A stretch of DNA of 64,000 nucleotides from Bryobacterales bacterium (lineage in GTDB: Bacteria; Acidobacteriota; Terriglobia; Bryobacterales; Bryobacteraceae): positions 4,358 to 68,357 of the forward strand of contig CAVPZQ010000010.1 in assembly GCA_963710155.1 (NCBI GenBank), given 5' to 3'. The position numbers and the translations under genes are program-made. A model generated the notes under the pieces. That model searched no databases. It worked only from the letters and a program-made list of their open reading frames with translations, and was not told the origin of the DNA. Positions 5,295 to 63,733 of the stretch are shown here, one piece after another; within the stretch, counting starts at the first letter, position 1; each line of letters starts with the position of its first letter.

Positions 5295-5374
5295 GCTTAC
5301 TTTCGCACGGTGATTTCTTGTAACACAACGTTAACCAACAGCAGGGGTGCCTCTCGTTTATGATATAGGGGCTG

Positions 5375-6088: not shown

Positions 6089-6125
6089 ACCGCCGCTGTC
6101 GTATTACAGGACGGCGTTGCCGGGC

Positions 6126-8258: not shown

Positions 8259-9227
8259 ATGCCGGGCGAAATAAAGGCCATTTGTTTTTCATGCGGTTTG
8301 TTGATGTTGGCGGCAGTCAGAGGGACTCTCGCCGATACACCGGATCTCAAGGCCGTGCGCCGGCCGATGGCGGACTTGCACGCTCTCGCGAAGATTGCGG
8401 TGCCAGGATCCCCGGATTGGGTGGCGATCGGCGGCAGCGTTTGGATCTCGAATAATCCCAAAAACAACGTCTCTAATATCGACCCGAAGACCAACACTAT
8501 TGTTGCTACCATTCCGGTAGGCAAGTCTCCTTGCGCGGGATTAGCGATTGGCTTCGGAAGTGTGTGGGTTCCTAACTGCGGCGATGGCAGCGTTTGGCGG
8601 CTGGATCTGCAAACACACCAGCGGGTGGCGGCGATCATGACGGGCGTGGCTGACACCGAAGGCGGAATCGCGGCGGGCGGCGGTAGCGTTTGGTTGCCTT
8701 CCGATAAAGCTGGGATCCTGTCACGCATCGATCCTAAAACGAATCAAGTGGTATCGAAAATCAAGATTGCTAGCGGGTCGTTCACGGCGGTCGATGGCGA
8801 AGGCTCGATCTGGGTTAGCAGCACCAAGAACAATCTGGTGTCGCGCGTCGATCCAAAATCGGAAAAGGTTGTGGCGTCGATTCCAGTGGGGCCGTCGCCG
8901 CGATTTCTCACGGTGGGATTGGGCAGCGTGTGGGTGCTGAACCAGGGCGACGGCAGTGTTTCGCGCATTGATCCGGCGTCGAACCGCGTCGTCGCGACCA
9001 TTGCTGTCGGCGTTCCGGGGGCGGGCGGCGATATTGCTACGGGAGACGGCTCGGTGTGGGTGACTGCGATTGGAACGCCGTTGTCGCGCATTGATCCGGC
9101 TACAAATCGCGTGGTGAAGCAGTACATTGGAAAGGGCGGAGACGCGCTGCGGTTCGGCGTGGGTTCTTTGTGGTTGTCCAACCATGAAATGCAGGAAGTC
9201 TGGCGAATCGATCCGAAGGGTTTGTGA
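8259..9227 (+). CDS. secreted beta-propeller repeat protein (YVTN/Vgb-like)
   Basis: ATG at 8259 (TTG at 8244 is also possible). Hydrophobic signal-like N-terminus (ICFSCGLLMLAAV), then about 7 repeats of the form G-SVWV..(D)GSV.RIDP.TN.VVA.I.VG. Confidence 0.65.
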   Translation: MPGEIKAICFSCGLLMLAAVRGTLADTPDLKAVRRPMADLHALAKIAVPGSPDWVAIGGSVWISNNPKNNVSNIDPKTNTIVATIPVGKSPCAGLAIGFGSVWVPNCGDGSVWRLDLQTHQRVAAIMTGVADTEGGIAAGGGSVWLPSDKAGILSRIDPKTNQVVSKIKIASGSFTAVDGEGSIWVSSTKNNLVSRVDPKSEKVVASIPVGPSPRFLTVGLGSVWVLNQGDGSVSRIDPASNRVVATIAVGVPGAGGDIATGDGSVWVTAIGTPLSRIDPATNRVVKQYIGKGGDALRFGVGSLWLSNHEMQEVWRIDPKGL

Positions 9228-9228
9228 T

Positions 9229-12048: not shown

Positions 12049-12055
12049 GGTCGCT

Positions 12056-13493
12056 ATGAAACTAAGACTTAATCGGCGTGAGGCGCTGTGCCGCATGGGC
12101 GGCGGCTTTGGCATGTTGAGCTTTGCCAGCATGGTGGGAGAATCGATCGCGAAGGCGGACACGCCGTCGGATTCGCAGGGCGTGCCGAGCGCGCGCATTC
12201 CTAACTTCAAGCCCAAAGCCAAGCACGTCATCTTTCTGTTCATGAACGGCGGGATTTCGCAGGTGGACAGCTTCGATCCCAAGCCGATGCTGGACAAATA
12301 CAACGGCCAGCCGATCCCGGGCGACACGCTGACGCATGAGCGCAAGACCGGCAACCTGATGCGCTCGCCGTTCACGTTCAAGAAGTACGGACAGAGCGGC
12401 ATTGAGATGAGCGAGATCTTCCCTAACCTGGGCGAATGCGCGGACGACATGTGCATGATCCGCTCCATGTACACCGATATTCCGAACCATGAGCCATCGT
12501 TGCTGATGATGAACGTCGGGCATATTCAGCCGGGGCGTCCGTCGATGGGATCTTGGATCACTTACGGCCTGGGCACGGAAAATAAAAGTTTGCCGGGTTT
12601 TGTAGTGTTGTGCCCCGAGGTGCCGACCACAGTGGGGCCTCCGCTGTGGAATTCGGCGTTTCTGCCTCCGGTTTACCAGGGTACGTTTATCACGGACAGC
12701 GTGAAAGAGAAGAAATTCGATCCGCAGAAATTGATTCCGGATATTCACAACGATAAGTTCGATCTGAAGCAACAGAAGGGCGAGATCGATCTTCTGGAAA
12801 CACTGGATCGTTTGCAGATGCAGCAGGAACGGTCCGCCGATCCGCAACTGGAAGCCACGTTGCAATCGATGGAAACCGCTTATCGAATGCAGACCGAGGC
12901 GCCGGATGTGTTTGACGTGCGCAAGGAAAGCGAAGCCACCATCAAGATGTATGGCGAGGGCAGCACGGCGCGGGGATGTCTCACTGCCGCGCGCCTAATC
13001 GAACGCGGCGTGCGTATGGTGCAGATTTACTACGCCAAGGGCGATCCGTGGGATCATCACTTCGACATCGAATTGCACCGCAAGAACGCCAAGGATTCCG
13101 ATCAGCCCTTCGCGGCGCTGATTAAAGATTTAAAGCAGCGCGGCTTGTACGACGAGACGATTATTGTTTGCGGGTCTGAATTCGGACGTACGCCGGTGGT
13201 GGAAGTCGGCAGCGGCTTTATGGGCGGCCAAGTGCACAATGGGCGCGATCACAATCCGCACGGCTTTACGGTCTGGCTCGCTGGGGGCGGCTTCAAGCGC
13301 GGCATGGTTTACGGCTCCACCGACGATTTCGGCTGGAAGGCTGTCGACAACCCGGTGCACGTGCACGAATCTGCACGCGACGATCCTTTATCAACTGGGA
13401 ATTGACCACACCAAACTGACATATCGCTATAGCGGTCGCGATTTCCGGTTAACAGATGTGGCCGGTAAAGTGATTCACGATATCATCGCTTAA
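12056..13493 (+). pseudogene. DUF1501 (sulfatase-fold) protein gene, frameshifted near 13367-13370
   Basis: The main frame (12056..13405) ends ...[18 protein letters not shown]. The conserved DUF1501 C-terminus [41 protein letters not shown] continues in another frame to 13493. Removing one A from gtgcacgAAtctgcac restores VHVHDLHATIL. Confidence 0.8.
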
Positions 13494-19926: not shown

Positions 19927-20576
19927 AGCCCGCGTATTATCAGAATCAACAAGGCGGACGCGATCGCTGGATGGTGAGCTATCTGGATGTGTTAACCATC
20001 CTGCTGATTCTGTTTGTAGCGATGGCGGCACAGACCCTGCAAAACTCGCAGAAGAAACCGGCTCCAGTGGCGGCTGTCGCACCCGTTGCGCCCGTTGCGC
20101 CGGTCGCGAAAGCGCCCGTAATGGAAGGACCCAGCGCGGCGATGACCGCGATCAAGCAGGACCTGGAAAAAAGCAATCTGGACGTGCAAGTAGATTCCCG
20201 CGGCGTGGTCGTCAGCCTGCCGCAGGCTCTGCTGTTTCAACCCGGCGCGGACAAAATCAACGCCGACGCGCTGCCGACGGTGCAGACGATCGGCGATGTG
20301 CTCAACAAGATCCCCAACAATGTGAGTCTGGTGGGGCACACGGATGCAACTCCCATTCACAACCGGCACTTCGCCAACAACTGGGAGTTGGCTGCGGCTC
20401 GCGGACTGCGTCTGCTGGAGCTCTTAAGCAGCCGTTATGGAATTGAAGAATCACGGCTCTCGGTGGCGAGCTTTGGCTCCTACGATCCTAAGAACTCGAA
20501 CGATACTCCGGATGGGCGCGCCAGCAATCGCCGCGTGGAAATCGTGATTCTAGATAGCTACGCGCGCAAGCCGTAA
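19923..20576 (+). CDS. motB: flagellar stator protein MotB (OmpA-like C-terminal domain, set 1)
   Basis: ATG at 19923 overlaps the motA stop (ATGA). N-terminal TM with the conserved Asp context (WMVSYLDVLTILLILFV). OmpA-like end (VGHTDATPI..., NWELAAARG, NRRVEIVI). Confidence 0.8.
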   Translation: MKPAYYQNQQGGRDRWMVSYLDVLTILLILFVAMAAQTLQNSQKKPAPVAAVAPVAPVAPVAKAPVMEGPSAAMTAIKQDLEKSNLDVQVDSRGVVVSLPQALLFQPGADKINADALPTVQTIGDVLNKIPNNVSLVGHTDATPIHNRHFANNWELAAARGLRLLELLSSRYGIEESRLSVASFGSYDPKNSNDTPDGRASNRRVEIVILDSYARKP

Positions 20577-22633
20577 TAGTTCGCGGTCGACGTGATGTCG
20601 GGGCCATGCTCATTGCGCAGCAGGCTCAGCAAGTCCAGCGGCCGTGTGGGATTCGACGTCAACCCGACCGCAGAGGGATTCGCGACCTTGCGTAGACGGC
20701 CCGACTCCACCACATATTTCTGATTGTCGGCGCCTTGTAGCAACTCGCCTTCTCGGGCACCCACTTCAGCACTCAGGCGGTCAAAGGACGCCCCGTAGCC
20801 GTCCATGATTCCGGTATCGAAGCCTTGCAGGCCGCCGGTGGGCATCTGGTTGCGATGGATACTCCACAACAGATGTTCGCGCGCAGTGATGGCGCCGTCC
20901 CAGCTCAGGCTTTCCGCCATCGCACGCCCGTTGTTCGCGAGCCGTTGCCGGAGCTCGGGGATACGGACCAGGCCATCGAGCGCCACTGCGAAGTCAGCGA
21001 TGACGCGCGGACGCGCCACGATCGCAGTGTGGCCGTCGATTGCGTAACCTTCTGTCCCGTAGGGCGTGGTGATTACGGCCGTGCCGCAGGCCATGGCTTC
21101 AATGGGTGGCAGCGGGCAGCTTTCGTACCACGAAGGGCACAACGCGATATCGCTTTCGGCGTAAAGACGGCTCAGGGCATCGTGATCGAGCGTCCCGTGA
21201 AACTGGTAGGGCGCGAGTTCATTGTTGGGTCCGAAAACCGGGTGCTCGAAACCGTAGACGTGCCACGCGATCTTGTTGGGATAGCGCTGCATGAGCTGTG
21301 CCATGGCGGGCACCGCGTCCTGGAAACCCTTCCACTTTTCGGGGCGGCAGTAGGTGACGACGCGGATCACGCCGTCCTGCGCGCTCAACTTCGGGCGCGG
21401 GTGAAATTTGGCGGTGTCGACTCCGTTTTGCACCACTGGAACAATTTCGTTAAAGCGGCGGCGGAACTCGCCGGCGAGCCAGCTCGAATTCGCGATGCGG
21501 TACATCGGCATCTGAAACGTATTGCGGCACAGCATCTTGATCAGCGGATTGCCTTGCAAGCCCGAAGCGGGGTTGGCATCCGAAGCGAAAAACACTTCGT
21601 CATAATGTTGCGGGAAGTGAACCGGCTTGCCTTTTCCGGATTGCCAGGCGGGGATGATGCTTTCCCAGTTGGCGGCGATGATCAGGTCGGCTTCGGGGAT
21701 CGCTGGCGTTAGCAAGTGCGTGTAGGCCAAGAAGAAGCGCAACTCACCTAGAAAATCCCGCGGCGTTTTATCCAGAAAATGATACGGCAGAGATTCGCGT
21801 CGGGCTGCGGCGTCGTAGTGAATGGGCACTTTGAAATCGAGTCCCGGGAATGGTTCATCCTCGAGCCACATGAACTGCGGCCAGGTAGTGAGCGAGACTT
21901 CATGTCCCCGCGCCTGCAGGCGGCGCGCGTATTCTAGGGTGCTGGCGGCGCTTCCGGTGCGGACTCGCGCCGTGGGGCCCAGCAAAAAACTCATGGACAA
22001 GTGCTGCGGTGCGTGCACGGCGGGAGCTTGAACCGTCTTCACGACAGGCTGCATCGGAGTGGAAGTTCTCTTCGCCACGCCAACCACGACGGCAAAGCCG
22101 TTGCCAACTTTGTCATCGGTGTCCTGAACATGCAGGATGTTCCAGCCCAGCCAGTGAATCAGCTCGACAAAATCTTCAGTGATCCACACCGAGCAGTGTT
22201 CGGCGAGAGTTTCCGGCTGTTTGCCAGTCTCGTGCCGTTCGATCAGCTCGGCCAGAGTGGAGCGCGGACGCTCCTTGTCGAAAGTGCGTTCCTTGTGCGG
22301 AGCAATGATGTAAAGATAACCGCCGGGCTTGACCACGCGATACCACTCGCGGAGTGCCTTAATAGGATCGGGAAAGTGCTCGATGACGTGCGAGCTGATG
22401 ACGAAATCGACGCTGTTGTCTTCGAGCGGCAGTTGGTCGCCAGGCGACACGATATCCACAGGCAGAGAGGTCCCGCATAGCTTGACCTCTTCCTGCTTGA
22501 AACAGGTCAGCTCATTTGTGTTGTCGACGTTGCGAGTCTTCAGACCGAACGAGTTGTGCGCGGAGCCGCCGATTTCAAGCCCATCGAGGCCGTCGAGCAG
22601 CTTGTGAGCGAGTGCGCTTTCTTTGAATTTCAT
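20558..22633 (-). CDS. SAM-dependent methyltransferase :: GT4-type glycosyltransferase fusion protein
   Basis: 691-aa ORF. The N-terminal ~190 aa are a class-I MTase (LEIGGSAHN, VDFVISSHVIEHFPDP, VVKPGGYLYI). The centre and C-terminus are GT-B/GT4-like (RPEKWKGFQDAV..., ESCPLPPIEAMACGTAVITT). Confidence 0.75.
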   Translation of the reverse strand: MKFKESALAHKLLDGLDGLEIGGSAHNSFGLKTRNVDNTNELTCFKQEEVKLCGTSLPVDIVSPGDQLPLEDNSVDFVISSHVIEHFPDPIKALREWYRVVKPGGYLYIIAPHKERTFDKERPRSTLAELIERHETGKQPETLAEHCSVWITEDFVELIHWLGWNILHVQDTDDKVGNGFAVVVGVAKRTSTPMQPVVKTVQAPAVHAPQHLSMSFLLGPTARVRTGSAASTLEYARRLQARGHEVSLTTWPQFMWLEDEPFPGLDFKVPIHYDAAARRESLPYHFLDKTPRDFLGELRFFLAYTHLLTPAIPEADLIIAANWESIIPAWQSGKGKPVHFPQHYDEVFFASDANPASGLQGNPLIKMLCRNTFQMPMYRIANSSWLAGEFRRRFNEIVPVVQNGVDTAKFHPRPKLSAQDGVIRVVTYCRPEKWKGFQDAVPAMAQLMQRYPNKIAWHVYGFEHPVFGPNNELAPYQFHGTLDHDALSRLYAESDIALCPSWYESCPLPPIEAMACGTAVITTPYGTEGYAIDGHTAIVARPRVIADFAVALDGLVRIPELRQRLANNGRAMAESLSWDGAITAREHLLWSIHRNQMPTGGLQGFDTGIMDGYGASFDRLSAEVGAREGELLQGADNQKYVVESGRLRKVANPSAVGLTSNPTRPLDLLSLLRNEHGPDITSTANYYGLRA
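22071..22633 (-). repeat. duplicated methyltransferase module, copy A (pairs with 24562..25124)
   Basis: Direct repeat of about 563 bp with no indels. I counted about 60 mismatches in 553 aligned nt by eye. Similarity stops exactly at the start codon. Confidence 0.85.
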
Positions 22634-22722
22634 TGTGTTGTCAATCCGTCCTTTGTGAAGACCCTACGCGTAAACAACTAGAACATCGGCAGAATCGCCT
22701 TAGAACTGCAATATGGCGGGCG

Positions 22723-24303
22723 TCAGCTGTAGTACGAAAACTTCTGACTGCCGCGGTAAAACGCTTCTTCCTCTGCGGGGACAATTCTGTCCTTGTACCA
22801 GGGCAAATGCCGGCAGGTGTATTTTCCACCGACTCTGACGCCCCTCAAGTGGTCCACCGGATCGAAGAAGCGCTTGTTGTATACGGCGAAGGTGGTGTCG
22901 ACGGCGGCGCTATAAACCTCGTCGCCGGTGCTGGTGAAGCCGACCGGATTCTTCCAGAACTGGGCTTCCCACTCCCAGATCTGATATTCCGCGGCGCCGA
23001 TGTGGAACTTTTCGTGGCGCATTTTGGACCAGTCGGATATGTTGAGAGCCAGTCCGGCTTTGCCTACGCGGTGTTTCTCGGTAAGCGAGATCAGTTCGTA
23101 GATGAAATCTTGCGACAGCGACGGGTTCAGTTCCAGGTCCGGATCGGTAATACAAAAATAATCCGGCAATGAGAACAGGTTTTTCGGATCCAGAAATAAG
23201 TTGTGCGGTCCTTTGTTCTCTTCCAGGCGGATAACGGAGAGATCGGGACTGCCCTGCGACAGGTAGTCGAGCAGCGGCGGAAAGGTCGAAGCGTTGTCTA
23301 TGGCGATGATCTCTTCGAAACCAAAGCGGCGTAGTTGCGAGACCATGCTCTTCAAGTACGTCACGGAGTTGAATACCGGAATCAGAACCGGGATGCGTTT
23401 CTGGAAGTGGCCGCCCAACGATGAAGACGGTTTGGTGCGCACGCTGACGGGAGCCTGCTGGGGCGCGGGCGCGGCCATGCAAGATCGCAATGGTGATTTT
23501 GCATCGAACAATTCCGACGCGATCCGCGGTATCAAGGCAGCTTTCACGAATAGGATGTTGAACTGATGGTCTCCATACTCGCGGTCGCGGGCGATCGGGA
23601 CAAAGCCTTTCGCGATCAGCTCACGCGTGATGTAGGCGCTGTCCTTCTGTTCTTTCCAAAACTCGAAGTTTTCGACTTCGATCAGGACGGCCACTGCGCT
23701 CGCCAGGGCTTTTTCGGCGCCTTTCACGACTTTGTCAGCGGCGCCCTCCGCGTCGATCCAGAGAGCGATGCGCTGCTCCGCTATATCAAATCCTTCTTCG
23801 GCGAGGAACCCGTCCAGAGTGGTCCCGTCCACATTGAATTCTTCGTAAATAGCGTCCTCGTTTCTGAGGAGCAGCGATGTCTTGCCAGTGGTCTTGGGCT
23901 CATTGATATGACCCGGAAGCACCACGCCCTTGTCGTAGTATCGCGACAAGGTTCGCGGCGCGTAGATCTTGACCGGACCCACGGAGTCCGCGATCGCGCG
24001 GTTGAGATATTTTACGCCGGCCGCCGAAACATTCGCTTTGTGAAGCGTGAAGATTTCGGGGTTGGCTTCGAAAGAATACACCAAAAGCCTGGGAAATCTT
24101 TGTTTGGCGGCGACGGCGCAGCCTCCATCGAACGCTCCGATATCGAAGAACACAGTAGGGCGGAGGCGCTCCAGGACGTCCCACAGAAGAGACGTCAATC
24201 TTGCGTTGCCGGCCGGGCCTTCTTCGCCGCGGTCTAGCATGTTCAGATTCGCCATCAGCAGGTAATCGATCGCCAGCTTGCTGTTCTGCGTCTCGGTGGT
24301 CAT
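22723..24303 (-). CDS. FkbM-family methyltransferase :: GT2-type glycosyltransferase fusion protein
   Basis: Start set at the ATG at 24303 (AGGAG upstream, 8 nt after the stop of the preceding gene) rather than the ORF-track 24492. N-terminal FkbM-like part (VFFDIGAFDGGCAVAAKQ..., SFEANPEIF). C-terminal GT2-like part (VLIPVFNSVTYLKSMV..., EIIAIDNAST, DPD). Confidence 0.7.
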   Translation of the reverse strand: MTTETQNSKLAIDYLLMANLNMLDRGEEGPAGNARLTSLLWDVLERLRPTVFFDIGAFDGGCAVAAKQRFPRLLVYSFEANPEIFTLHKANVSAAGVKYLNRAIADSVGPVKIYAPRTLSRYYDKGVVLPGHINEPKTTGKTSLLLRNEDAIYEEFNVDGTTLDGFLAEEGFDIAEQRIALWIDAEGAADKVVKGAEKALASAVAVLIEVENFEFWKEQKDSAYITRELIAKGFVPIARDREYGDHQFNILFVKAALIPRIASELFDAKSPLRSCMAAPAPQQAPVSVRTKPSSSLGGHFQKRIPVLIPVFNSVTYLKSMVSQLRRFGFEEIIAIDNASTFPPLLDYLSQGSPDLSVIRLEENKGPHNLFLDPKNLFSLPDYFCITDPDLELNPSLSQDFIYELISLTEKHRVGKAGLALNISDWSKMRHEKFHIGAAEYQIWEWEAQFWKNPVGFTSTGDEVYSAAVDTTFAVYNKRFFDPVDHLRGVRVGGKYTCRHLPWYKDRIVPAEEEAFYRGSQKFSYYS

Positions 24304-24311
24304 GCCAGCTC

Positions 24312-25124
24312 CTAGACGTGGCCTTGCGCCATGTCCTTCAGCATTTGCTTCTCGACGATCAAATCGGCGATCGCACGGCGCAACTGCGCGTTTTCTTTTT
24401 GCAGCTTGTTCAACTGATCCGGATCGGGGCTCACGAAGGAGGCCGCTGGAGAAGACTGCGCAGCGGGCGCAAAGCGCGGCGGATTCGCCCATGCAGGCTG
24501 CAGCGGGGAGGCGGACGGCTTCGAGACGCCGGCCGCAACGTTCAACTTGGGAGCGTTACCCTTCGTCACGCCGACCACGACGGTAAAGCCGTTGCCAACT
24601 TTGTCATCGATGTCCTGGACATGCAGGATGTTCCAACCCAACCAGTGAATCAGCTCGACAAAATCTTCGGTGATCCACACCGAGCAGTGTTCGTTAAGGG
24701 TTTCAGGCTGTCTGCCTGTCTCGTGCCGTTCAATCAGCTCAGCCAGAGTGGAGCGCGGGCGTTCTTTATCGAAAGTGCGTTCTTTGTGCGGCGCAATGAT
24801 GTAGAGATACCCACCGGGTTTGACCACGCGATACCACTCGCGAAGCGCCTTGATGGGGTCCGGAAAGTGTTCGATGACATGCGAGCTGATGACGAAATCG
24901 ACGCTGTTTTCTGCTAGGGGCAGTTGGTCGCCAGGCGAAACGATGTCCACCGGCAGGGACGTGCCACACAGCTTGATCTCTTCCTGTTTGAAGCAAGTCA
25001 GCTCATCGGTGTTGTCGACGTTCCTAGTCTTCAGCCCGAACGAGTTGTGTGCGGAGCCGCCGATTTCAAGTCCGTCGAGGCCGTCGAGCAGCTTGTGAGC
25101 GAGTGCGCTTTCTTTGAATTTCAT
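24312..25124 (-). CDS. SAM-dependent methyltransferase with C-terminal coiled-coil tail
   Basis: 270-aa ORF. The first ~186 aa are nearly identical (9 substitutions) to the N-terminus of the 691-aa protein. The tail is LNKLQKENAQLRRAIADLIVEKQMLKD. Confidence 0.75.
   Translation of the reverse strand: MKFKESALAHKLLDGLDGLEIGGSAHNSFGLKTRNVDNTDELTCFKQEEIKLCGTSLPVDIVSPGDQLPLAENSVDFVISSHVIEHFPDPIKALREWYRVVKPGGYLYIIAPHKERTFDKERPRSTLAELIERHETGRQPETLNEHCSVWITEDFVELIHWLGWNILHVQDIDDKVGNGFTVVVGVTKGNAPKLNVAAGVSKPSASPLQPAWANPPRFAPAAQSSPAASFVSPDPDQLNKLQKENAQLRRAIADLIVEKQMLKDMAQGHV
24562..25124 (-). repeat. duplicated methyltransferase module, copy B (pairs with 22071..22633)
   Basis: See copy A. The first ~73 nt of the two CDSs differ at only 2 positions. 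Confidence 0.85.
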
Positions 25125-25143
25125 GGTTGCTTTTCCTTTTTAA

Positions 25144-26229
25144 TCAAATGGCTTCGAGGACGGGCGACAGTTCCTCAACCTGGCTGGTGCAAGGGCGGTC
25201 GCCGGCGAGAACCTGTTCCCATAGCTCAACGTTCTTTTCGATATTGCGGTGCGTCAACACCCAATCGCGCTGTTCGCGATATAACTTGGTCCGATCCGCT
25301 TGCAGAACTTCTTCCAGCTTCCGCTTCCAAGACTCGCGATTATTCTTCGCCGTAATCGGGACCTCGGTGGAATACGGAACCACGTGCGACGCCAGCGTGA
25401 TCGCACCCGACATGGCGTATTCGTAGTATTTAATGCAGCTCTTATGACGATTGAACTGATCATCGAGCAGGGGCGCGATGCCGACGTCCAGTTTCAAATC
25501 GCAGACTTTTCGCGGATGCTGCTCAAGCGGGACGTTGGGATGGAACTCGTAGCGGATGCCCGACAGCTTATCCATGAAATGCTTGATGGATCTGCCCAGC
25601 GGCGTATGGAACAAAGCCTGGCCCCAGCGCGCTTCGAGTACGGCCATCAATTCTTCAAGAGTCGATTCCTGGCAAATTCCCTGAAGCACAAAAGTGAACG
25701 GAATTTTTTTCTGCACTTCGCGGACCGCATCCAGCGCGACGGCCAGATCCAGAAAGTGCGTGGGGCTTCCGGTCCATCCGATGCGGGCTTCCCCGCTCCT
25801 GGGTTCGACCGTCCATTCCTCCGGATCAACACTATTGGGAATCACCGTGACGTTGGGATTCCACTGACGAAGATAGCCGGCCAACGTGTCCGTCGTAGTG
25901 GTCACGACGTCCGCGGCGCGCAGCAGGAATTCATAAAGCGGCAGCCGCGCTTGCACAGCTTTGTAGTTCAGGTTCTCAGGGGGGACCAGATCCAGCGCGT
26001 CGTCGGTATCGAAGACTACTCGGATTCTGTTTTTCTTGCACCATTCGACGATTTTTACCGCTTGCGGATAGTGCGCGCGGTAGAGAACCAGAACGTCGGG
26101 CGCGTTATAGCTCTCTTGATTCGAGAGAATTTCGACTTGGTGCCCGCGTTGGCGCAGATATTTAGCGGGAATCGCGCCGCGCCATTTGTAGCAGCCGCTT
26201 TGCGTCTCGGTGAGCAAACAAATATTCAA
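25144..26229 (-). CDS. putative glycosyltransferase (GT-B-like)
   Basis: 361-aa ORF. The TTG start overlaps the fliJ stop (TTGA). The N-terminus is typical of GT-B enzymes (MNICLLTE...RGAIPAKYLRQRGHQVEIL; VVFDTDDALD; IGWTGSPTH). The family assignment is tentative. Confidence 0.55.
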   Translation of the reverse strand: MNICLLTETQSGCYKWRGAIPAKYLRQRGHQVEILSNQESYNAPDVLVLYRAHYPQAVKIVEWCKKNRIRVVFDTDDALDLVPPENLNYKAVQARLPLYEFLLRAADVVTTTTDTLAGYLRQWNPNVTVIPNSVDPEEWTVEPRSGEARIGWTGSPTHFLDLAVALDAVREVQKKIPFTFVLQGICQESTLEELMAVLEARWGQALFHTPLGRSIKHFMDKLSGIRYEFHPNVPLEQHPRKVCDLKLDVGIAPLLDDQFNRHKSCIKYYEYAMSGAITLASHVVPYSTEVPITAKNNRESWKRKLEEVLQADRTKLYREQRDWVLTHRNIEKNVELWEQVLAGDRPCTSQVEELSPVLEAI

Positions 26230-35370: not shown

Positions 35371-35420
35371 TCTTTTATTACCTGCATGTATCTTTTATTA
35401 CCCGCATGTATCTTTTATTA
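35371..35420. repeat. 2.5 tandem copies of a 20-bp unit TCTTTTATTACC[T/C]GCATGTA
   Basis: Read directly: tcttttatta cctgcatgta / tcttttatta cccgcatgta / tcttttatta. It lies between the divergent sigma-28-type promoters of fliC and ORF 35464. Confidence 0.9.
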
Positions 35421-35445
35421 GAAGATCCGTCCGCTTTTGCGATAT
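35419..35445 (+). promoter_or_regulatory. sigma-28-type promoter
   Basis: TAGA-N15-TGCGATAT, 18 nt before the ATG at 35464. Confidence 0.6.
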
Positions 35446-48083: not shown

Positions 48084-48110
48084 TATACCTTCGCGGATTT
48101 GTTGCGATAT
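48084..48110 (+). promoter_or_regulatory. sigma-28-type promoter of fliS
   Basis: TATA-N15-TGCGATAT. The ATG at 48120 begins 9 nt after the -10 element. Confidence 0.6.
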
Positions 48111-48119
48111 GTACCCGTG

Positions 48120-48626
48120 ATGGATGACCAGTTCGCACAGCAAGCTCATCGGGACTACATTGAAAGCCGCGTCTTTTCCGCGCACCCGGTGGAACGCGTT
48201 CAGATGTTGTATGAAATCGCGATCGACAGCGTGAATACCGCGATCGCGCGCTTCAAAGACGGCGACATTTTTGCACGCGGCCGCGCGGTCACCAAAGCGC
48301 ACGAGGCTGTCGACGAACTCACCCTGGCGCTGGATCATTCCGTGGGCGCAAGTTTCACGCACACCCTTGCCGAACTGTACGGCTACGTCCAGCGGCAGCT
48401 GATGGCCGGCCACAGCCAGAAGTCCGAAGAAGCGTTTCAAAATGCCCTCTCCGTGCTTTCGACGCTCGCCGGTGCCTGGAAGGAAGTGGTGATCCGGACC
48501 TGCGGCAGCGGATCATCTCAAGTGGCGCCAATTTCGCAGGAACCGGCCGCGAGCTCTGAGCCGCGTTCGGCTTACGAGGGGGTGCCCCAGATGGCGTCTA
48601 CTTCGTCACGGGATTGGAGCGGCTAG
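48120..48626 (+). CDS. fliS: flagellar export chaperone FliS (with C-terminal extension)
   Basis: FliS core (VERVQMLYEIAIDSVNTAIARFKDGDIFARGRAVTKAHEAVDELTLALD..., LAELYGYVQRQL). ATG at 48120 chosen because the ORF-track TTG at 48099 lies upstream of and inside the promoter element. GTG at 48117 is also possible. Confidence 0.8.
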   Translation: MDDQFAQQAHRDYIESRVFSAHPVERVQMLYEIAIDSVNTAIARFKDGDIFARGRAVTKAHEAVDELTLALDHSVGASFTHTLAELYGYVQRQLMAGHSQKSEEAFQNALSVLSTLAGAWKEVVIRTCGSGSSQVAPISQEPAASSEPRSAYEGVPQMASTSSRDWSG

Positions 48627-48957
48627 CCGCTTCCGCCGCCGCATTCGCCGAAGCTTGGCCCAAGCTGGTGGTAATCATCCGCGCCAAGCCCAACCCTCCG
48701 TGCGCGGTGAGCGCGCGCGCGAAATATTCGTCGGCCATCTGCATAGTGGAGGCAGACGTCTGGTCTTCTTCCCCGGCGCCCATCCATCCGCCTTCTTCTT
48801 CGTGCGCCGATTTGAGAATCTGCCCCACCATCAGCGATTCAAACTGCCCGGCCGCGTCTTTGATCTTTTGCGGACTATCGGTTTTCTGCGACGGCCCGCT
48901 GCTTCCCGTCGCCAGGCCAGGGGTCGATAATACTCCGGAAATAAGTGAATCGGCCAT
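48598..48957 (-). CDS. flgJ: rod-binding protein (FlgJ N-terminal domain only, no muramidase domain)
   Basis: 119 aa. Rod_binding signature AAGQFESLMVGQILKSA ... YFARALTAHGGLGLARMI. Last gene of the flgF-flgI operon. Confidence 0.8.
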   Translation of the reverse strand: MADSLISGVLSTPGLATGSSGPSQKTDSPQKIKDAAGQFESLMVGQILKSAHEEEGGWMGAGEEDQTSASTMQMADEYFARALTAHGGLGLARMITTSLGQASANAAAEAASRSNPVTK

Positions 48958-53322: not shown

Positions 53323-53349
53323 TAGAATATTCATCGCAACTTGCGATAT
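53323..53349 (+). promoter_or_regulatory. sigma-28-type element upstream of fliK
   Basis: TAGA-N15-TGCGATAT, 134 nt before the fliK start. Its role is uncertain because a sigma-54 promoter lies closer to the gene. Confidence 0.45.
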
Positions 53350-59447: not shown

Positions 59448-60524
59448 ATGGCGGATTCCAGCAAAACAGAAGATCCAACAGGCAAACGCCTCTTAAAGGC
59501 GCGCGGCGAAGGCCAATATGCGTCTTCACGGGAAATCATCGCGGCTGCGAATTTCCTGGTGTTCCTGGGAATTTTAGGTGCCTGGTTCCCCTCCTGGATG
59601 GACGGCATGAAGCAGATGCTGCGCCAGGCCCTCGAAGGCGCCTTCCGCGGCGAACTCACCGTGACCACCTTCCCGCGCATCGCCGGAGTCTTGCTGAACC
59701 GCGCCTTCCTTCCGCTCTCCGTCCTCGCCGGCCTGACCACGTTGACCACCGTCGCCATAAATCTCGCCGTCACCAAAATGGGTTTCAGCCTCAAAAAACT
59801 GATGCCCGATTTCTCGCGCCTGAATCCCGTCGGCAAGATCAAGAACATGGCCACGCAAGGGCCCGCCGCCGTCGGACAGGCAACCGCCATGCTGATCGTC
59901 TTCAGCGGCACCATTTATTTGATCGCCAAGCAGAACGCGGAAGTCTTCCTCTCCCTGCCCTTCGCCAGCCTGGACGTCAGCCTGCAAACCGTTGCCGCCG
60001 CCATCAAGGATTTGCTATGGAAAGCCGCCGGCGTCTTCCTGGTCTTCGGGATCATCGATGTCTTCCGCCAGCGTAAGCGCTACACCAAGGGCCTCAAGAT
60101 GAGCAAGCAGGAAGTGAAGGAAGAGGCCAAGGAATCTGAAGTCAATCCACAGGTCAAGGGCAAGATCCGCCGCATGCGCCGCGACCTGGCCCGCCGCCGA
60201 ATGATGAAGGAGGTCGCCACCGCCACCGCCGTCATCGTCAACCCCACGCACTACGCCGTAGCCCTGCGCTACCAGCACGATTCCTCCGGCACTCCCTTGG
60301 TCGTCGCCAAGGGCAAGAACTATCTGGCCCTCCGCATCCGCCAGCGTGCCCTCGAGAACGGCGTCCCCCTGGTCGAAAATCCGCCTTTGGCGCGGGCGCT
60401 CTACGCTTCGGTCGACGTTGGCCGCGAAATCCCGCCGAACCTCTATAAAGCCGTGGCCGAAGTCCTGGCCTACATCTACCGCCTGACCAACGCCCGCGCC
60501 TCGAACCACCGGCGCCGCGCCTGA
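59448..60524 (+). CDS. flhB: flagellar export switch protein FlhB
   Basis: 358 aa. EDPTGKRLLKARGEGQYASSRE N-terminus, MSKQEVKEEAKESEVNPQVKGKIR, autocleavage motif NPTH (VIVNPTHYAVAL). Confidence 0.95.
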   Translation: MADSSKTEDPTGKRLLKARGEGQYASSREIIAAANFLVFLGILGAWFPSWMDGMKQMLRQALEGAFRGELTVTTFPRIAGVLLNRAFLPLSVLAGLTTLTTVAINLAVTKMGFSLKKLMPDFSRLNPVGKIKNMATQGPAAVGQATAMLIVFSGTIYLIAKQNAEVFLSLPFASLDVSLQTVAAAIKDLLWKAAGVFLVFGIIDVFRQRKRYTKGLKMSKQEVKEEAKESEVNPQVKGKIRRMRRDLARRRMMKEVATATAVIVNPTHYAVALRYQHDSSGTPLVVAKGKNYLALRIRQRALENGVPLVENPPLARALYASVDVGREIPPNLYKAVAEVLAYIYRLTNARASNHRRRA

Positions 60525-60539
60525 CCCTTAGGAATTCCC

Positions 60540-60566
60540 TCTACAAACCTCCGGATTCCGCGATAT
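60540..60566 (+). promoter_or_regulatory. sigma-28-type promoter of the HDOD gene
   Basis: TCTA-N15-CGCGATAT. The ATG at 60576 begins 9 nt after the -10 element. Confidence 0.55.
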
Positions 60567-60575
60567 ACAGTCCGG

Positions 60576-61436
60576 ATGGGAGTATCCCTCATAACGCCGT
60601 CCTCGCTGCGCGCACAAACCCTGCGCTGCCTCGACCGTTTGCCCAAGATGTCTCCCATGCTCAACCAGTTGCTAGGCCAGCTCTCCCGGCGAAACTGCGA
60701 AATCAACGATTTAGTCGAAACCGTGGAGCGCGACCCCATGCTATCCGGCCAGATCCTGCGCCTCGCCAACTCGGCCATCTTCGGCCGCCTGCGCCCGGTG
60801 TCCTCCGTGCGTCACGGCGTGGCCATGATCGGAACCGCGGCCCTGCGCAAGTTCGCCCTCGGCTCGTCCATCTCGAATCTCTTTTCACGCACCAAGATGG
60901 CGAAGAGTTTTTCGGTGCGGCGCTTCAACGTGCATTCCGCGGCCACCGCCACGCTTCTCGAACTGCTCTCTGAAGCGGTGCCTTTCGAATTCGGAGAGGA
61001 TGCTTTCCTAGCCGGCCTGCTGCACGATGTTGGAAAACTATTGATCGCCGTGAGCCTGCCGCGCCAATACGACGATATCCTGGCCCTCACCGCCGTAAAC
61101 GGAGCCACGCTGATTGAGGCCGAGCGCGACGTCATCGGCATCGATCACGCCGAACTGTCTGCCCTGGCGATTTCCCGCTGGGAACTCTCCGAAGGCATCC
61201 AAGCGGCCGCAGCCGATCACCATCAGCCCCCCGAGCCTTCCGGGAAGCCGAAACTAAGCCTGGGAGTCCACCACGCCGACGCTTATATCAACCACTTGGG
61301 AATGTCGGTGCTGGCGATTCCACTGCCTTGCCAGAAAGCCGCGACTCTCGAAATCCCCGGCCTTGCGTTCTCTCAGGAGCGCGTTCTCGCAGCCTTCGAG
61401 CAGGAAATCCAGACGCTAGGAAGTCTGTTCCACTAG
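60576..61436 (+). CDS. HDOD domain-containing protein
   Basis: 286 aa. HDOD blocks LPKMSPMLNQLLGQL..., VERDPMLSGQILRLANSAIFG, VRHGVAMIGTAALRKFAL, AGLLHDVGKLLI. Confidence 0.8.
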   Translation: MGVSLITPSSLRAQTLRCLDRLPKMSPMLNQLLGQLSRRNCEINDLVETVERDPMLSGQILRLANSAIFGRLRPVSSVRHGVAMIGTAALRKFALGSSISNLFSRTKMAKSFSVRRFNVHSAATATLLELLSEAVPFEFGEDAFLAGLLHDVGKLLIAVSLPRQYDDILALTAVNGATLIEAERDVIGIDHAELSALAISRWELSEGIQAAAADHHQPPEPSGKPKLSLGVHHADAYINHLGMSVLAIPLPCQKAATLEIPGLAFSQERVLAAFEQEIQTLGSLFH

Positions 61437-61453
61437 CCGCGCTTTGCGCAGCC

Positions 61454-62026
61454 CTATTGCTGCGTCAGCCGGTTGAGAATCCCCAGCACGTAGTTCTTAG
61501 TCTCCGGAATCTCCGGTACCGTGCCGGTCTTGTCCACACGTTGCGCGCCGGCGTTATAGGCGCTGAGGGCCAACGATAAATCCCCGTGATAGCGGTCCAG
61601 CAAGTCGCGCAGCAGCTTGCTGCCCGCCTCCAGACTCTCTTTGGGGCTGAACGGATTCTTCACCTGGAATTGCACCTGAGTGGCCGGCATCAGCTGCATC
61701 AGCCCCGCCGCGCCCTTAGGAGAAACCGCGCAAGGATAGAAGCCCGATTCCTGGCGAACCACCTCGCGAACCAGGGCCGCACTGATGTTCTGCCGCGGAG
61801 CGATATCGTCGATCATCCGCGACAACTCCGGTTGCGATACCGGTTCACAAGCCGCCATCTCAGGTATCAACAGTGGGTTCGGGGTGTACCCGGTCGCCGC
61901 CGCGCTCACAACCTGCATCCGTACCGAAGCGCGCTGCTGGGCTAAAGAAGCCGCCATAGCTGCACGTACGCGATCCGCCTGCGAGTGCACGTCCTGCGCC
62001 AGGAGGAGCGCTAGTAAAACAATCAC
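61454..62026 (-). CDS. secreted lytic transglycosylase (SLT domain)
   Basis: 190 aa, GTG start, signal peptide (MIVLLALLLAQDVHS). SLT catalytic block VVRQESGFYPCAVSPKGAAGLMQLMPAT and AYNAG. Confidence 0.85.
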   Translation of the reverse strand: MIVLLALLLAQDVHSQADRVRAAMAASLAQQRASVRMQVVSAAATGYTPNPLLIPEMAACEPVSQPELSRMIDDIAPRQNISAALVREVVRQESGFYPCAVSPKGAAGLMQLMPATQVQFQVKNPFSPKESLEAGSKLLRDLLDRYHGDLSLALSAYNAGAQRVDKTGTVPEIPETKNYVLGILNRLTQQ

Positions 62027-62033
62027 AAATGGC

Positions 62034-62061
62034 CTATCGGCAGACGCCGTTTTTTTCTTTA
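62034..62061 (-). promoter_or_regulatory. possible sigma-28-type promoter of the SLT gene
   Basis: The minus strand reads TAAAG...-GCCGATAG (TAAA-N16-GCCGATAG, one nt longer than the other sites). The GTG at 62026 begins 7 nt after the -10 element. Confidence 0.4.
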
Positions 62062-62068
62062 CGGTTCG

Positions 62069-63082
62069 TTACAGCGGCCCGCCGCCGAGCGCCTTCGACA
62101 AGCTCGCCAGCTTGCTCTGGAATTTCAGAACGTCTGAGCCCGCCTGATGATCCACCACGCCCGCTGCCACTTGAAACACCAGCGTGCACGGAATTCCGTC
62201 GTGCTTAAACGAATACGGTTCCGTCAGCTTCTGCGCCGCATCGCGCGAGATCGCCATCGCGCTGCTCGGCGAGGCGTTCAGAATCGCCACAAATTGATTC
62301 GAAGTCCAGCGCCCCAGCATGGATTCCCCACCGAGCGCATCCCGCAGCCGCACTTGCAGGGATTCCAGCGCCTCCTCCACCACGCCGCCCGAATACCGGC
62401 CCGCCAGCATTTTCAGGTTCCGCAGAACGATTAACACTAGGCAGAACGATGTGTTCTGCCGCAACATCTGATCGATGCGATGATCTACGTCCTGCCGGTT
62501 CCAGGTCTCCGCGTTCAGCGCAGCCGGCCGCCGCCCGGCCTGAATTTTTTGATGTAGCAGCCGGATCTCGTCTTTCAACTGCGCGATGGCGAACTGATTC
62601 TTCGCCTGCATCTGCTCGAAACTCGAAAGGATATCCGCGGAAGCCGAGCGAATCGCCGCCTTCATCGCCTCCATCCGGTCAGTCGCTGCCGCGGTGTCCA
62701 GCGTCATGAGCGCCTGCTTCAATTGCTTCTCGTGATCGTCGCCGCGCGCCGAGGCGTTTCCCGCGAACTCCTCGAGCGCCCCCACCGCCGCGTCCATTTC
62801 CTTGCGCAACCGCCGCAGTAGCTCGTGCGTGCTATCCCGGTACTCGCGTAGTTCTTCGCGGAACAAGTCCTGGATGTTCTGCAATTGGTCGGGGCTTTTG
62901 GCCCCGCCCAGCTGGTTTATCAGCGCCTGCAACTCTCCCCGGAACTGCGTCGCCTGCTGGTGATCCACCTCAATGACGTTCTGTTCCGTCGAGGTCAGGG
63001 CCAGCCCGTAGCATTCGAGCGCCACCTTCTTGAATTTTTCCAGCCGCTCCATTTCAAAAGCGGTCTTCAGTAGTGAAATCAT
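62069..63082 (-). CDS. coiled-coil protein with degenerate GGDEF-like C-terminal domain
   Basis: 337 aa. The N-terminal ~170 aa are predicted coiled coil. The C-terminus has a GGDEF-domain layout with catalytic positions replaced (ETWNRQD for LTGLxNR; LVLIVLRNLKML for DxDxFK; GRWTSNQFVAIL for RxGGDEF). No RxxD I-site is seen. Confidence 0.6.
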   Translation of the reverse strand: MISLLKTAFEMERLEKFKKVALECYGLALTSTEQNVIEVDHQQATQFRGELQALINQLGGAKSPDQLQNIQDLFREELREYRDSTHELLRRLRKEMDAAVGALEEFAGNASARGDDHEKQLKQALMTLDTAAATDRMEAMKAAIRSASADILSSFEQMQAKNQFAIAQLKDEIRLLHQKIQAGRRPAALNAETWNRQDVDHRIDQMLRQNTSFCLVLIVLRNLKMLAGRYSGGVVEEALESLQVRLRDALGGESMLGRWTSNQFVAILNASPSSAMAISRDAAQKLTEPYSFKHDGIPCTLVFQVAAGVVDHQAGSDVLKFQSKLASLSKALGGGPL

Positions 63083-63369
63083 CCCAGCAACAACCGTGCA
63101 GTGCGGGCAGGGGACGCCGATTCAAGCAGGCAGCGCCGCATCCCGTCGCGGCCCTCCACGCGTATGCGGCCCGTTTCTTCGCTCACCCGGTAAGCCGACT
63201 GCGCCCCGTGATGCCGCGCCAGCGATTCCAGCGGCCAGTCCGAATCCGCCACCATGCGAATGTAGCCTTCCGGCCCGATGAGGATGGTCATGTCCGTACA
63301 AGCCTGCCCGTTCCGCGATGCCGATTCGGCGGCGTCCAGGATGTTGCGGGCTTGTTCGGCCAGATGCAC
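63079..63369 (-). CDS. hypothetical protein (first gene of a predicted sigma-28 operon)
   Basis: 96 aa, GTG start 6 nt after a sigma-28-type -10 element. Its stop overlaps the next start (ATGA). I recognise no motif. Confidence 0.5.
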   Translation of the reverse strand: MHLAEQARNILDAAESASRNGQACTDMTILIGPEGYIRMVADSDWPLESLARHHGAQSAYRVSEETGRIRVEGRDGMRRCLLESASPARTARLLLG

Positions 63370-63375
63370 ACCTTC

Positions 63376-63402
63376 ATATCGCAGAGCTTCGCCAGAATTC
63401 TA
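63376..63402 (-). promoter_or_regulatory. sigma-28-type promoter
   Basis: The minus strand reads TAGA-N15-TGCGATAT (gatTAGAATTCTGGCGAAGCTCTGCGATAT). Confidence 0.6.
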
Positions 63403-63511
63403 ATCGTCAATTCATTAACGGTTGTACCGTCAGATTTTGGACTCCCAGACGCAAATAACGCATATTTATCAGCAACTTAACGATTGGCTCTCGACTTGCT
63501 TTCGTGGAGGC

Positions 63512-63733
63512 ATGAACCTTATAGCGAATCTATCCCCCACCTATAGACGTTCTTTTTCCGTGAACAACCTCTCCGGCATGACCGACGCCGGCAACGATAG
63601 CAACCGCGCCTACACTGAGATGATGGGCATCCTCAACGGCCTCAGCCAGCACGATCCCAGCCTGTACCAGCGCGTAAAGCAGGAAATCGTAAGCAGCCTG
63701 CGAACCGCTAAATCGTTCCGCCGAAGCTGCTAG
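63512..63733 (+). CDS. hypothetical protein
   Basis: ORF-track 63422..63733. The ATG at 63512 is preceded by GGAGG with only 1-nt spacing, so the start and coding status are uncertain. Confidence 0.3.
   Translation: MNLIANLSPTYRRSFSVNNLSGMTDAGNDSNRAYTEMMGILNGLSQHDPSLYQRVKQEIVSSLRTAKSFRRSC

Follow-up and report, generated by a model that had tools for sequence, protein, structure and literature searches.

The locus raises the question of whether the genes beyond flhB form one uncharacterized flagellar module of late expression, as an initial annotation had proposed, or several units with separate roles. The window, the 64,000-nucleotide stretch of DNA that was analyzed, comes from a soil acidobacterium and contains a complete flagellar gene cluster. 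Positions 60,540-63,402 are the distal edge of this cluster, which is of the Bryobacterales type (Acidobacteriota). To our knowledge, there is scarcely any experimental work on acidobacterial flagella. In our best explanation, to which we assign a probability of about 55%, the edge would consist of three FliA (sigma-28)-type units encoding a lytic transglycosylase for the rod, an HDOD regulator and a scaffold protein with a degenerate GGDEF domain.

The four open reading frames of the initial annotation are real and occupy exactly the positions given there. The HDOD gene (60,576-61,436, forward strand, 286 aa) directly follows flhB (59,448-60,524). The other three genes are on the reverse strand: the SLT gene (61,454-62,026, 190 aa, GTG start), the gene of the degenerate GGDEF protein (ccGGDEF*; 62,069-63,082, 337 aa) and orf96 (63,079-63,369, 96 aa, GTG start). 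A sigma factor of the FliA/WhiG type is also encoded in the window and scores 206 bits with TIGR02479, above the cutoff of 189.6. The locus had been described as lacking che genes, and indeed the window from 20 to 64 kb contained neither che nor PilZ genes. The N-terminus of FliM, inspected by eye, showed no CheY-docking motif of the LSQxEIDxLL type, in agreement with the annotation. The underlying observations (open reading frames, domains, dead GGDEF motif, promoter elements) all stand. Of the interpretation built on them, the domain calls, the promoters and the missing che genes were upheld, but the late class, the three-gene operon and the single module were not.

A local FliA-type motif, TAAA/TAGA-N15-TGCGATAT, recurs in the flagellar cluster. 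A search for TAAA-N15-TGCGATAT with up to two mismatches returned 8 matches against 2.4 expected, a number reached in 0 of 100 shuffles. The motif is also found ahead of flagellin, flbD-motA, fliS, the unit upstream of flgK/flgL and the fliK-flgD-flgE-fliOPQR-flhB operon (hereafter fliK-flhB), where the element lies at 53,323-53,349. A position weight matrix trained on six other flagellar promoters was used to score ~128,000 positions. The element before orf96 (63,376..63,402, reverse strand, TAGA-N15-TGCGATAT, -10 end 6 nt from the GTG) has a single mismatch to the local motif and ranked 6 with 23.0 bits, a score that no random site reached. The element before the HDOD gene (60,540..60,566, forward strand, TCTA-N15-CGCGATAT, -10 end 9 nt from the ATG) ranked 8, and random windows contain on average 0.6 such sites. 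The SLT gene is preceded by a canonical sigma-28 element (62,034..62,061, reverse strand, TAAAG-N14-GCCGATAG) located 7 nt ahead of its GTG.

All three elements left phylogenetic footprints. The HDOD footprint, CTCTACAA...CGATAT/A with a variable spacer, is kept in the orthologous loci L001-L008 and L038 and, as judged by eye, in L046 and L047. At the SLT gene, TAAAG...GCCGAT(A/T)(A/G)-N7-start is kept in 10/10 orthologous loci, in which spacer sequence and intergenic length vary and the 7 nt distance to the start codon is fixed; it was seen in L046 as well. The orf96 footprint, CTAGAAT...GCGATAT with a variable spacer, is kept in L001-L006, and in L007 and L008 an element of this type precedes the GGDEF gene by ~600 nt. 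The sigma-28-type elements reported before HDOD, orf96 and SLT are thus supported as upstream elements resembling TAAA-N15-GCCGATAA in a genome with fliA. We infer that the locus is transcribed as three short FliA-dependent units: SLT, HDOD, and orf96 with the GGDEF gene. The initial annotation had placed SLT in an operon with the latter two while noting a possible promoter of its own; this promoter is borne out by its conserved element, and two units fit the reverse strand better than one operon. Its own promoter could serve the HDOD gene, which transcripts running on from the fliK-flhB operon probably reach as well. A generic scan for sigma-70 promoters and terminators between 60,400 and 63,800 gave nothing relevant.

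Membership in a late flagellar class does not follow from these elements, because the hook and export genes of the fliK-flhB operon are preceded by a promoter of this type as well. In an enteric-type hierarchy, sigma-28 control of an enzyme required early in assembly would be odd; in this locus, however, hook and export genes share the promoter type. The sigma-54 consensus TGGCAC-N5-TTGCW was not enriched in the window (36 matches against 33.5 expected), and no class could be assigned on that basis either.

Gene order separates a constant from a variable part of the locus. The HDOD gene directly after flhB, and the SLT gene convergent with it, were present in 11/11 loci, down to 54% HDOD identity. 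By comparison, orf96 is missing from L007 and L008, where a small Cys/His open reading frame takes its place, the degenerate GGDEF gene is missing from the related locus L046, and the paralogues are mostly non-flagellar. The proposal of a single module does not hold against this pattern: the conserved core is HDOD plus SLT after flhB, and the whole set is not one unit. A zf-HC2 anti-sigma motif was considered for the Cys/His open reading frame and rejected, as Pfam gave only E 0.11.

The SLT protein is a family-1 lytic transglycosylase by profile (Pfam SLT, PF01464, 3.5e-24, 85 bits) and by its intact catalytic motifs: QESGF with the catalytic Glu-Ser, GLMQLMP and AYNAG align with Slt70 and other lytic transglycosylases. 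Its N-terminus is hydrophobic, with a putative signal peptide without a basic n-region, and the protein is probably exported. The best NCBIfam match was the BB0259 flagellar assembly lytic transglycosylase (NF047373, 1.8e-15), whose cutoff of 234 bits is far above the 56.8 obtained; this match covered the SLT domain only (551-650 of 705 profile positions), and the protein is not a member of that equivalog. The FlgJ-like protein of the cluster (48,598-48,957, 119 aa) matched only the Rod-binding domain (E 8e-4, below the gathering score), and further peptidoglycan hydrolase domains were not found in the flagellar cluster. Since the FlgJ of the locus is rod-binding only, the SLT protein is read as the flagellar peptidoglycan-opening enzyme, a role that we hold with good confidence. 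Once exported it would cut peptidoglycan to let the rod pass, substituting for the hydrolase domain missing from FlgJ as SltF and BB0259 do elsewhere. This analogy is one of context and not of family membership. Pairing of a separate lytic transglycosylase with a single-domain FlgJ is on record (PMC8517470), and the SLT gene, which had been counted as part of an uncharacterized module, probably encodes the separate flagellar enzyme expected beside such a FlgJ.

The HDOD protein matched the full Pfam HDOD profile (PF08668, positions 1-196, 2.2e-46, 158.3 bits with the cutoff at 22.9) and also Pfam HD (1.1e-8). Its best match in the PDB was the Geobacter HDOD protein 3HC1 (1.2e-22), and the alignment preserves H, HD, H and HH. 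It predicts the metal-binding His/Asp pocket of 3HC1 in the window protein, in whose 20 orthologues the residues H120, H150, D151, H191, H215 and H216 do not vary. The initial annotation regarded HDOD and degenerate GGDEF domains alike as typically non-enzymatic; this agrees with the replaced catalytic residues of the GGDEF domain but is not established for HDOD, because all of the His/Asp metal ligands are retained. The two proteins would be non-enzymatic or metal-dependent motility regulators. Stand-alone HDOD proteins with motility phenotypes have been described (PMC11813219, PMC11004494). A part in motility is somewhat likely for the window HDOD protein, which by analogy with stand-alone HDOD proteins of Pseudomonas, Xanthomonas and Campylobacter is most likely a dosage-sensitive motility regulator acting through protein contacts.

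The degenerate GGDEF protein has a helical N-terminal region of ~190 aa followed by a GGDEF domain (aa 196-314), according to Pfam, AF2 and Foldseek. The profile match (PF00990, 3.3e-9, 37.2 bits) is above the gathering score of 23.8, 20/20 family members match the same profile, and the C-terminal domain was modeled with pLDDT 76-91. The best Foldseek matches were diguanylate cyclases or the degenerate GGDEF domain of FimX, and the top 50 were all GGDEF proteins, so that the fold assigned in the annotation is confirmed. Its RWTSNQF aligns with RYGGEEF of PleD. This alignment also bears out the reported loss of catalytic positions and of the I-site: neither the GG(D/E)EF motif of the active site nor the Mg-binding Asp of the DxD..N..D segment is present, and the RxxD inhibitory site, which would lie five residues before the GGDEF position, is absent from the protein, where the aligned stretch reads LGGESMLG, and from the family consensus. 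The protein has FCLVLIVLRNLKMLAGRYS where an intact relative in L047 reads FSIALFDLDNFKQTNDLYGH. It is predicted to be unable to make c-di-GMP, and the usual c-di-GMP-binding I-site is missing. The N-terminal region consists of long predicted helices (pLDDT 58-72), which supports that part of the proposed long coiled coil, though not its coiled-coil character beyond the helices. No described domain matched these 190 aa. Matches such as those to cytochrome b562, DUF7310 and FliL were all below cutoffs and were discarded as non-specific coiled-coil similarity, the weak FliL match being taken as noise. The protein is most likely a dimeric scaffold or adaptor, possibly together with HDOD, and the odds that it serves motility are about even.

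The small orf96 is conserved as a real gene: 379 homologues of ~96 aa were found, and substitutions concentrate at the third codon position ([4,2,16] to [15,14,47]). Its sequence had no match in Pfam (E<=1) or NCBIfam, and its AF2 model (pLDDT 85) had no Foldseek match in the PDB below E 0.02. The stop codon of orf96 overlaps the ATG of the GGDEF gene in an ATGA at 63,079-63,082, as had been reported, but the translational coupling read from it is not a conserved feature: the overlap occurs in 2/6 orthologous loci, and the other four have a spacer of 35-55 nt that carries its own AAGGAG, the start codon being TTG or GTG. Homologues of orf96 elsewhere stand alone and away from flagellar genes, some of them next to MacB-type permeases, and these distant contexts provided no functional lead.

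Two alternatives would reduce the flagellar content of the locus. One takes the SLT protein for a housekeeping or phage-derived lytic transglycosylase with no part in flagellar assembly. Its best PDB sequence match is indeed a phage tape-measure lytic transglycosylase domain (4e-14), and the BB0259 cutoff was missed widely; the constant position beside HDOD, the conserved canonical sigma-28 element at 7 nt from the start codon and the rod-binding-only FlgJ in a cluster with no other peptidoglycan hydrolase domain argue against it and make it very unlikely. The other alternative has more in its favor. It limits the flagellar genes to HDOD and SLT and sees in orf96 and the degenerate GGDEF protein bystanders at the cluster border, drawn from a general acidobacterial signaling family that has no special part in flagella. 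The GGDEF protein belongs to a multi-copy family found in Bryobacterales/Terriglobia genome bins, with at least 220 clusters at 50% identity (E<=1e-30), mostly degenerate and at some loci in several copies within 6 kb. Most paralogues lie away from flagellar genes, those of ~40% identity occurring in unrelated contexts, and the absence of the gene from L046, the permease neighbors of orf96 and the lack of conservation upstream of orf96 between loci fit as well. Yet the orf96 promoter resembles the flagellin and motA promoters as closely as these resemble one another, this promoter type is retained in 10/10 orthologous loci even with orf96 replaced, and the GGDEF gene lies directly upstream of SLT in 9/9 close loci. 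We therefore consider the bystander status of these two genes doubtful.

It has to be asked, too, whether the degenerate GGDEF protein senses a nucleotide (c-di-GMP or GTP, bound through a non-canonical site) and acts as a motor brake or clutch in CheY-independent control of swimming. The fold is well preserved, R258, W259 and F264 show little or no variation across the family, FliM has no evident CheY-docking motif in a cluster without che or PilZ genes, and in L047 a catalytically intact relative follows motA-motB in the same orientation and on the same strand as SLT, with one inserted motAB pair between them. Against this, A-site, Mg-binding Asp, guanine-contacting positions and the RxxD are all replaced, and the motif column RW[SGTADN]x[DEN]xF is hypervariable across the family, which speaks against conservation of a ligand pocket at this site. 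Such a sensor is improbable. The L047 arrangement is a single case, as the contexts of two further intact members, P0501 and P0507, showed no motAB linkage (one contig too short, the other non-flagellar). Joint action of HDOD and the degenerate GGDEF protein is a tentative idea at best: GGDEF paralogues lie directly before an HDOD gene, in the same orientation, in four other loci, where the neighbors, as read from their sequences, resemble a receiver protein and a hybrid histidine kinase, and these adjacencies amount to two independent events only. Quite unlikely is the bolder version, in which HDOD and the dead GGDEF protein would form a new motor-control device that works without c-di-GMP synthesis, is derived from an ancestral stator-linked diguanylate cyclase as in the motA-motB-GGDEF order of L047, and is expressed from near-leaderless FliA-dependent transcripts.

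The preferred reading, with a rod enzyme, an HDOD regulator and a GGDEF scaffold, does not overturn current understanding, and its value lies in annotation and testable leads. It names an enzyme that could be the missing rod-associated peptidoglycan hydrolase of acidobacteria, and a FliA-type promoter motif that can be used in this group. HDOD proteins recur in motility screens without a mechanism, and the one described here, placed in a flagellar cluster and with a full predicted metal site, is a good candidate for learning the function of the domain. The family of degenerate GGDEF proteins, large and for the most part inactive, is undescribed and illustrates the radiation of a cyclase scaffold into non-enzymatic roles.

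Three of the four proteins can be set beside known systems. The degenerate GGDEF protein resembles stalk or coiled-coil cyclases (SiaD, Caulobacter DgcB, WspR) in carrying a GGDEF fold behind a helical stalk, and its top Foldseek matches were SiaD (7e6g), DgcZ, WspR and DgcB (6ttr), together with FimX (3hva, TM 0.74). It was also compared with the degenerate GGDEF adaptors FimX (GGDEF domain), PopA and PelD; because its active site is dead and its I-site missing, it is neither a cyclase nor a receptor of the PopA/PelD type. SiaD has a small activator, SiaC, encoded just upstream in the siaABCD operon. A small protein gene likewise lies just upstream of the GGDEF gene here, but orf96, unlike SiaC, has no SiaC/DUF1987 similarity, and SiaC was not among its top 50 Foldseek matches in the PDB (best E 0.02). 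The SLT protein is comparable to two flagellum-specific lytic transglycosylases, SltF of Rhodobacter sphaeroides and BB0259 of Borrelia burgdorferi, each of which has a single-domain FlgJ as its partner (PMC8517470, PMC7277832): it is a separate SLT-family enzyme in or near the flagellar cluster, with intact family-1 motifs and a hydrolase-less FlgJ. Unlike BB0259 (model length 705), it has 190 aa and matches in the SLT domain only, and unlike both it would be expressed from a sigma-28-type promoter with leaderless-type spacing. Among HDOD proteins, the stand-alone PSPTO_4229 (P. syringae), Cj0248 (C. jejuni) and PFL_0554/PFL_5871 (P. protegens) and the multi-domain GsmR and SadB affect motility; for most the biochemical mechanism is not known, with the exception of SadB, a reported adaptor for AmrZ proteolysis (PMC11813219, PMC11004494, PMC12075610). 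The window protein shares with the stand-alone members a single HDOD domain and a length of ~270-300 aa, and Cj0248 (1vqr) was among its PDB sequence matches (2.7e-8). In contrast to these, its gene lies inside the flagellar cluster, directly after flhB and behind a FliA-type element of its own, and in contrast to SadB it retains every His/Asp ligand of the 3HC1 di-iron site.

An ORF scan of the end of the flagellar cluster returned gene coordinates identical to those of the initial annotation. flhB (59448-60524, plus strand) is followed by a gene for a 286-aa HDOD protein (60576-61436, plus strand; Pfam HDOD, 2.2e-46). Facing it on the minus strand are orf96, a 96-aa ORF with a GTG start (63079-63369), a gene for a 337-aa protein (62069-63082; Pfam GGDEF, 3.3e-9, 37.2 bits versus a gathering score of 23.8) and a gene for a 190-aa SLT protein (61454-62026; Pfam SLT, 3.5e-24). 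The orf96 stop and the start of the 337-aa gene overlap as ATGA. These results confirmed the earlier observation. The initial annotation had read these genes as one module. They are not a single unit: the conserved core consists of the HDOD and SLT genes only; the degenerate GGDEF protein and orf96 are variable additions.

The flagellar cluster in the window is complete and spans roughly 26 to 63 kb. It includes fliJ, fliI, fliH, fliG, fliF, rod genes, fliD, flagellin, fliM, motAB, flgL, flgK, a FliN/FliY-like gene, a FliA/WhiG sigma factor (TIGR02479, 206 bits versus a cutoff of 189.6), flhF, flhA, a sigma-54 activator, fliS, flgI, flgH, flgA, flgG and flgF, and a run consisting of a FliK-like gene, flgD, flgE, a small FliN-type gene, fliO, fliP, fliQ, fliR and flhB. 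Between 20 and 64 kb of the window, neither che nor PilZ genes were seen, and inspection by eye of the FliM N-terminus found no CheY-docking motif of the LSQxEIDxLL type. Glycosyltransferase and methyltransferase genes form a block (20558-26229, minus strand) that adjoins fliJ and fliI and may be a flagellin glycosylation island.

The SLT gene was convergent to the HDOD gene just after flhB in all 11 loci examined, including two lineages in which the HDOD protein was only 54-57% identical. Alignments to Slt70 and other lytic transglycosylases (LTs) showed that the protein retains the family-1 motifs QESGF, in which the E is the catalytic Glu, GLMQLMP and AYNAG, and its hydrophobic N-terminus was conserved among orthologues. 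The top NCBIfam match was the Borrelia flagellar assembly LT BB0259, far under the cutoff and covering the SLT domain only. The FlgJ-like protein of the cluster (119 aa; 48598-48957, minus strand) matched only the Rod-binding profile, below the gathering score (E 8e-4), and the profile search found no hydrolase domain in it, which fits a split FlgJ/LT system. Pairs of a single-domain FlgJ and a separate LT have been described (PMC8517470). On the strength of the motifs, the BB0259 match, the FlgJ-like protein lacking a hydrolase domain, this precedent and the synteny, the SLT protein is likely, at roughly three chances in four, to be the flagellar peptidoglycan-opening enzyme. It had been counted among the unknown proteins, and an ordinary, well-precedented role in flagellar assembly would take the place of that label.

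The predicted sigma-28 control of these genes gained support from motif enrichment, weight-matrix ranks and conservation in orthologous loci. The motif TAAA/TAGA-N15-TGCGA(T/C)AT is common to flagellin, the flbD-motA operon and orf96. Allowing up to 2 mismatches, the window holds 8 sites versus 2.4 expected, a count reached by none of 100 shuffles. Only one of these sites (8041-8067) falls outside the cluster. The other seven precede flagellar units: flagellin and a small divergent gene next to it, flbD-motA, fliS, orf96, the fliK-to-flhB operon and the unit upstream of flgK/flgL. A position weight matrix built solely from the six sites that lie beyond the gene group under study scored the orf96 site at 23.0 bits and the HDOD site at 14.3 bits, ranks 6 and 8 among about 128,000 positions; random windows gave 0 and 0.6 sites, respectively, at these scores. 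In orthologous loci the -35 and -10 blocks of both elements are retained, with variable spacers. An element of its own, TAAAGAAAAAAACGGCGTCTGCCGATAG, precedes the SLT gene and is essentially a textbook sigma-28 consensus. In 10 of 10 orthologous loci TAAAG...GCCGAT(A/T)(A/G) was kept, with the start codon 7 nt further on, despite intergenic lengths from 42 to about 125 nt; the element is also present in a more distant lineage (L046). Given the motif similarity and the presence of fliA, we infer that these sites would be recognized by FliA. A FliA-type element (TAGA-N15-TGCGATAT; 53323-53349, plus strand) also lies ahead of the FliK-like gene, the first gene of the fliK-flgD-flgE-fliOPQR-flhB(-HDOD) operon. 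This promoter type is therefore no marker of a late class here, and the earlier placement of the genes in the late flagellar class fails.

The -10 elements end 6 nt before the start of orf96 (GTG; 63370-63383, -10 at 63376), 7 nt before that of SLT (GTG; 62027-62041, -10 at 62034) and 9 nt before those of HDOD (ATG; 60559-60578, -10 at 60566) and fliS (ATG; 48103-48122). A Shine-Dalgarno sequence at normal spacing cannot be placed at any of these four starts, so the flagellar mRNAs may be leaderless or nearly so. The spacing is conserved in orthologous loci. Between flagellin and fliM (~35385-35440), a ~20-nt sequence (GGTAATAAAAGATACATGC) occurs in about three tandem copies that overlap a divergent FliA-type element at 35419-35445.

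As the HDOD gene lies 51 nt downstream of flhB, both its own element and read-through of the long operon may contribute to its transcription. The closest solved relative of the protein was Geobacter 3HC1 (1.2e-22), and C. jejuni Cj0248 was also matched. 3HC1 binds two iron ions via five His and one Asp (PMC12075610). These ligand positions were aligned in the window protein, and H120, H150, D151, H191, H215 and H216 were invariant in 20 orthologues (53-89% identity), so that the metal pocket, unlike that of SadB, is probably functional. [quoted passage not shown]

In the AF2 model of the 337-aa protein, the C-terminal domain was confident (pLDDT 76-91) and the long N-terminal helices were of lower confidence. 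RWTSNQF aligned to RYGGEEF of PleD, and substitutions have removed the RxxD I-site as well as the Mg-binding and guanine-contacting positions. The family (220 clusters at 50% identity, E<=1e-30) consists nearly entirely of proteins of 330-340 aa starting with MIS(I/L); its GGDEF position is hypervariable (RW[SGTADN]x[DEN]xF), with RWGGDEF retained only in a small subclade. All 42 genome loci found were in Bryobacterales/Terriglobia bins, except for one bin labelled alphaproteobacterial, and several hold two or three copies within 6 kb. In two orthologous loci a second paralogue of the degenerate GGDEF family (L006, about 5240-6280; L038, about 4380-5360) lies upstream of the flagellar copy at a distance of about 4.7-5.6 kb; the equivalent region would fall just outside the window.

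Whether the GGDEF gene belongs to a fixed module can be weighed from its distribution. Flagellar context was found only in the clade at >=58% identity, with paralogues at about 40% identity elsewhere. L046 has flhB-HDOD/SLT with the GGDEF gene absent, which argues against a fixed module. In each of four non-flagellar loci, an HDOD gene comes after a paralogue in the same orientation, with neighbours that, on inspection of the sequences, resemble a hybrid histidine kinase, a receiver protein and a TadZ/CpaE-like protein. In L047, a related lineage, two motAB pairs (8570-12900) flank a catalytically intact member (RWGGDEF) beside SLT/HDOD/flhB; this gene follows motA-motB, whose motA has a CCGATAT-type element upstream, and lies upstream of SLT on the same strand with one inserted motAB pair between them. 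These arrangements tie the family to this neighbourhood more closely than adjacency alone would.

orf96 had no Pfam or NCBIfam match, and a search with its confident AF2 model (pLDDT 85) found no similar PDB structure. Orthologues differ mainly at third codon positions, and the family (379 members, about 96 aa) has a strongly conserved core, ADSDWPL..L..HHGA..AYRVS. Homologues at 61-65% identity have no GGDEF or flagellar genes nearby. In L007 and L008, the most divergent loci of the flagellar clade, about 600 nt of different sequence takes its place between the conserved promoter and the GGDEF gene. The ATGA overlap was found only in the window, L001 and L003. orf96 is thus a real but lineage-specific passenger of its unit. 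The replacing stretch contains a small Cys/His-rich ORF (MQC..DHETIEAYALGK..H.LTCR.CQ; L007 9393-9830, L008 9410-9885) that recalls zf-HC2 anti-sigma factors (Pfam E only 0.11). Divergent from orf96 lies a putative gene of 103 aa (63422-63733, plus strand; gene-called as 73 aa), 72-79% conserved in L001-L004 and without a family match.

For the HDOD protein and the catalytically dead GGDEF protein we infer roles as dosage-sensitive motility regulators; in this favoured reading they would act via protein contacts, possibly working together. Foldseek matches of the latter were GGDEF proteins only, among them the stalk/coiled-coil cyclases SiaD, DgcZ, WspR and DgcB and the degenerate domain of FimX. 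Taken as a whole, the locus is a variation on familiar types of component and does not represent a new type of system.
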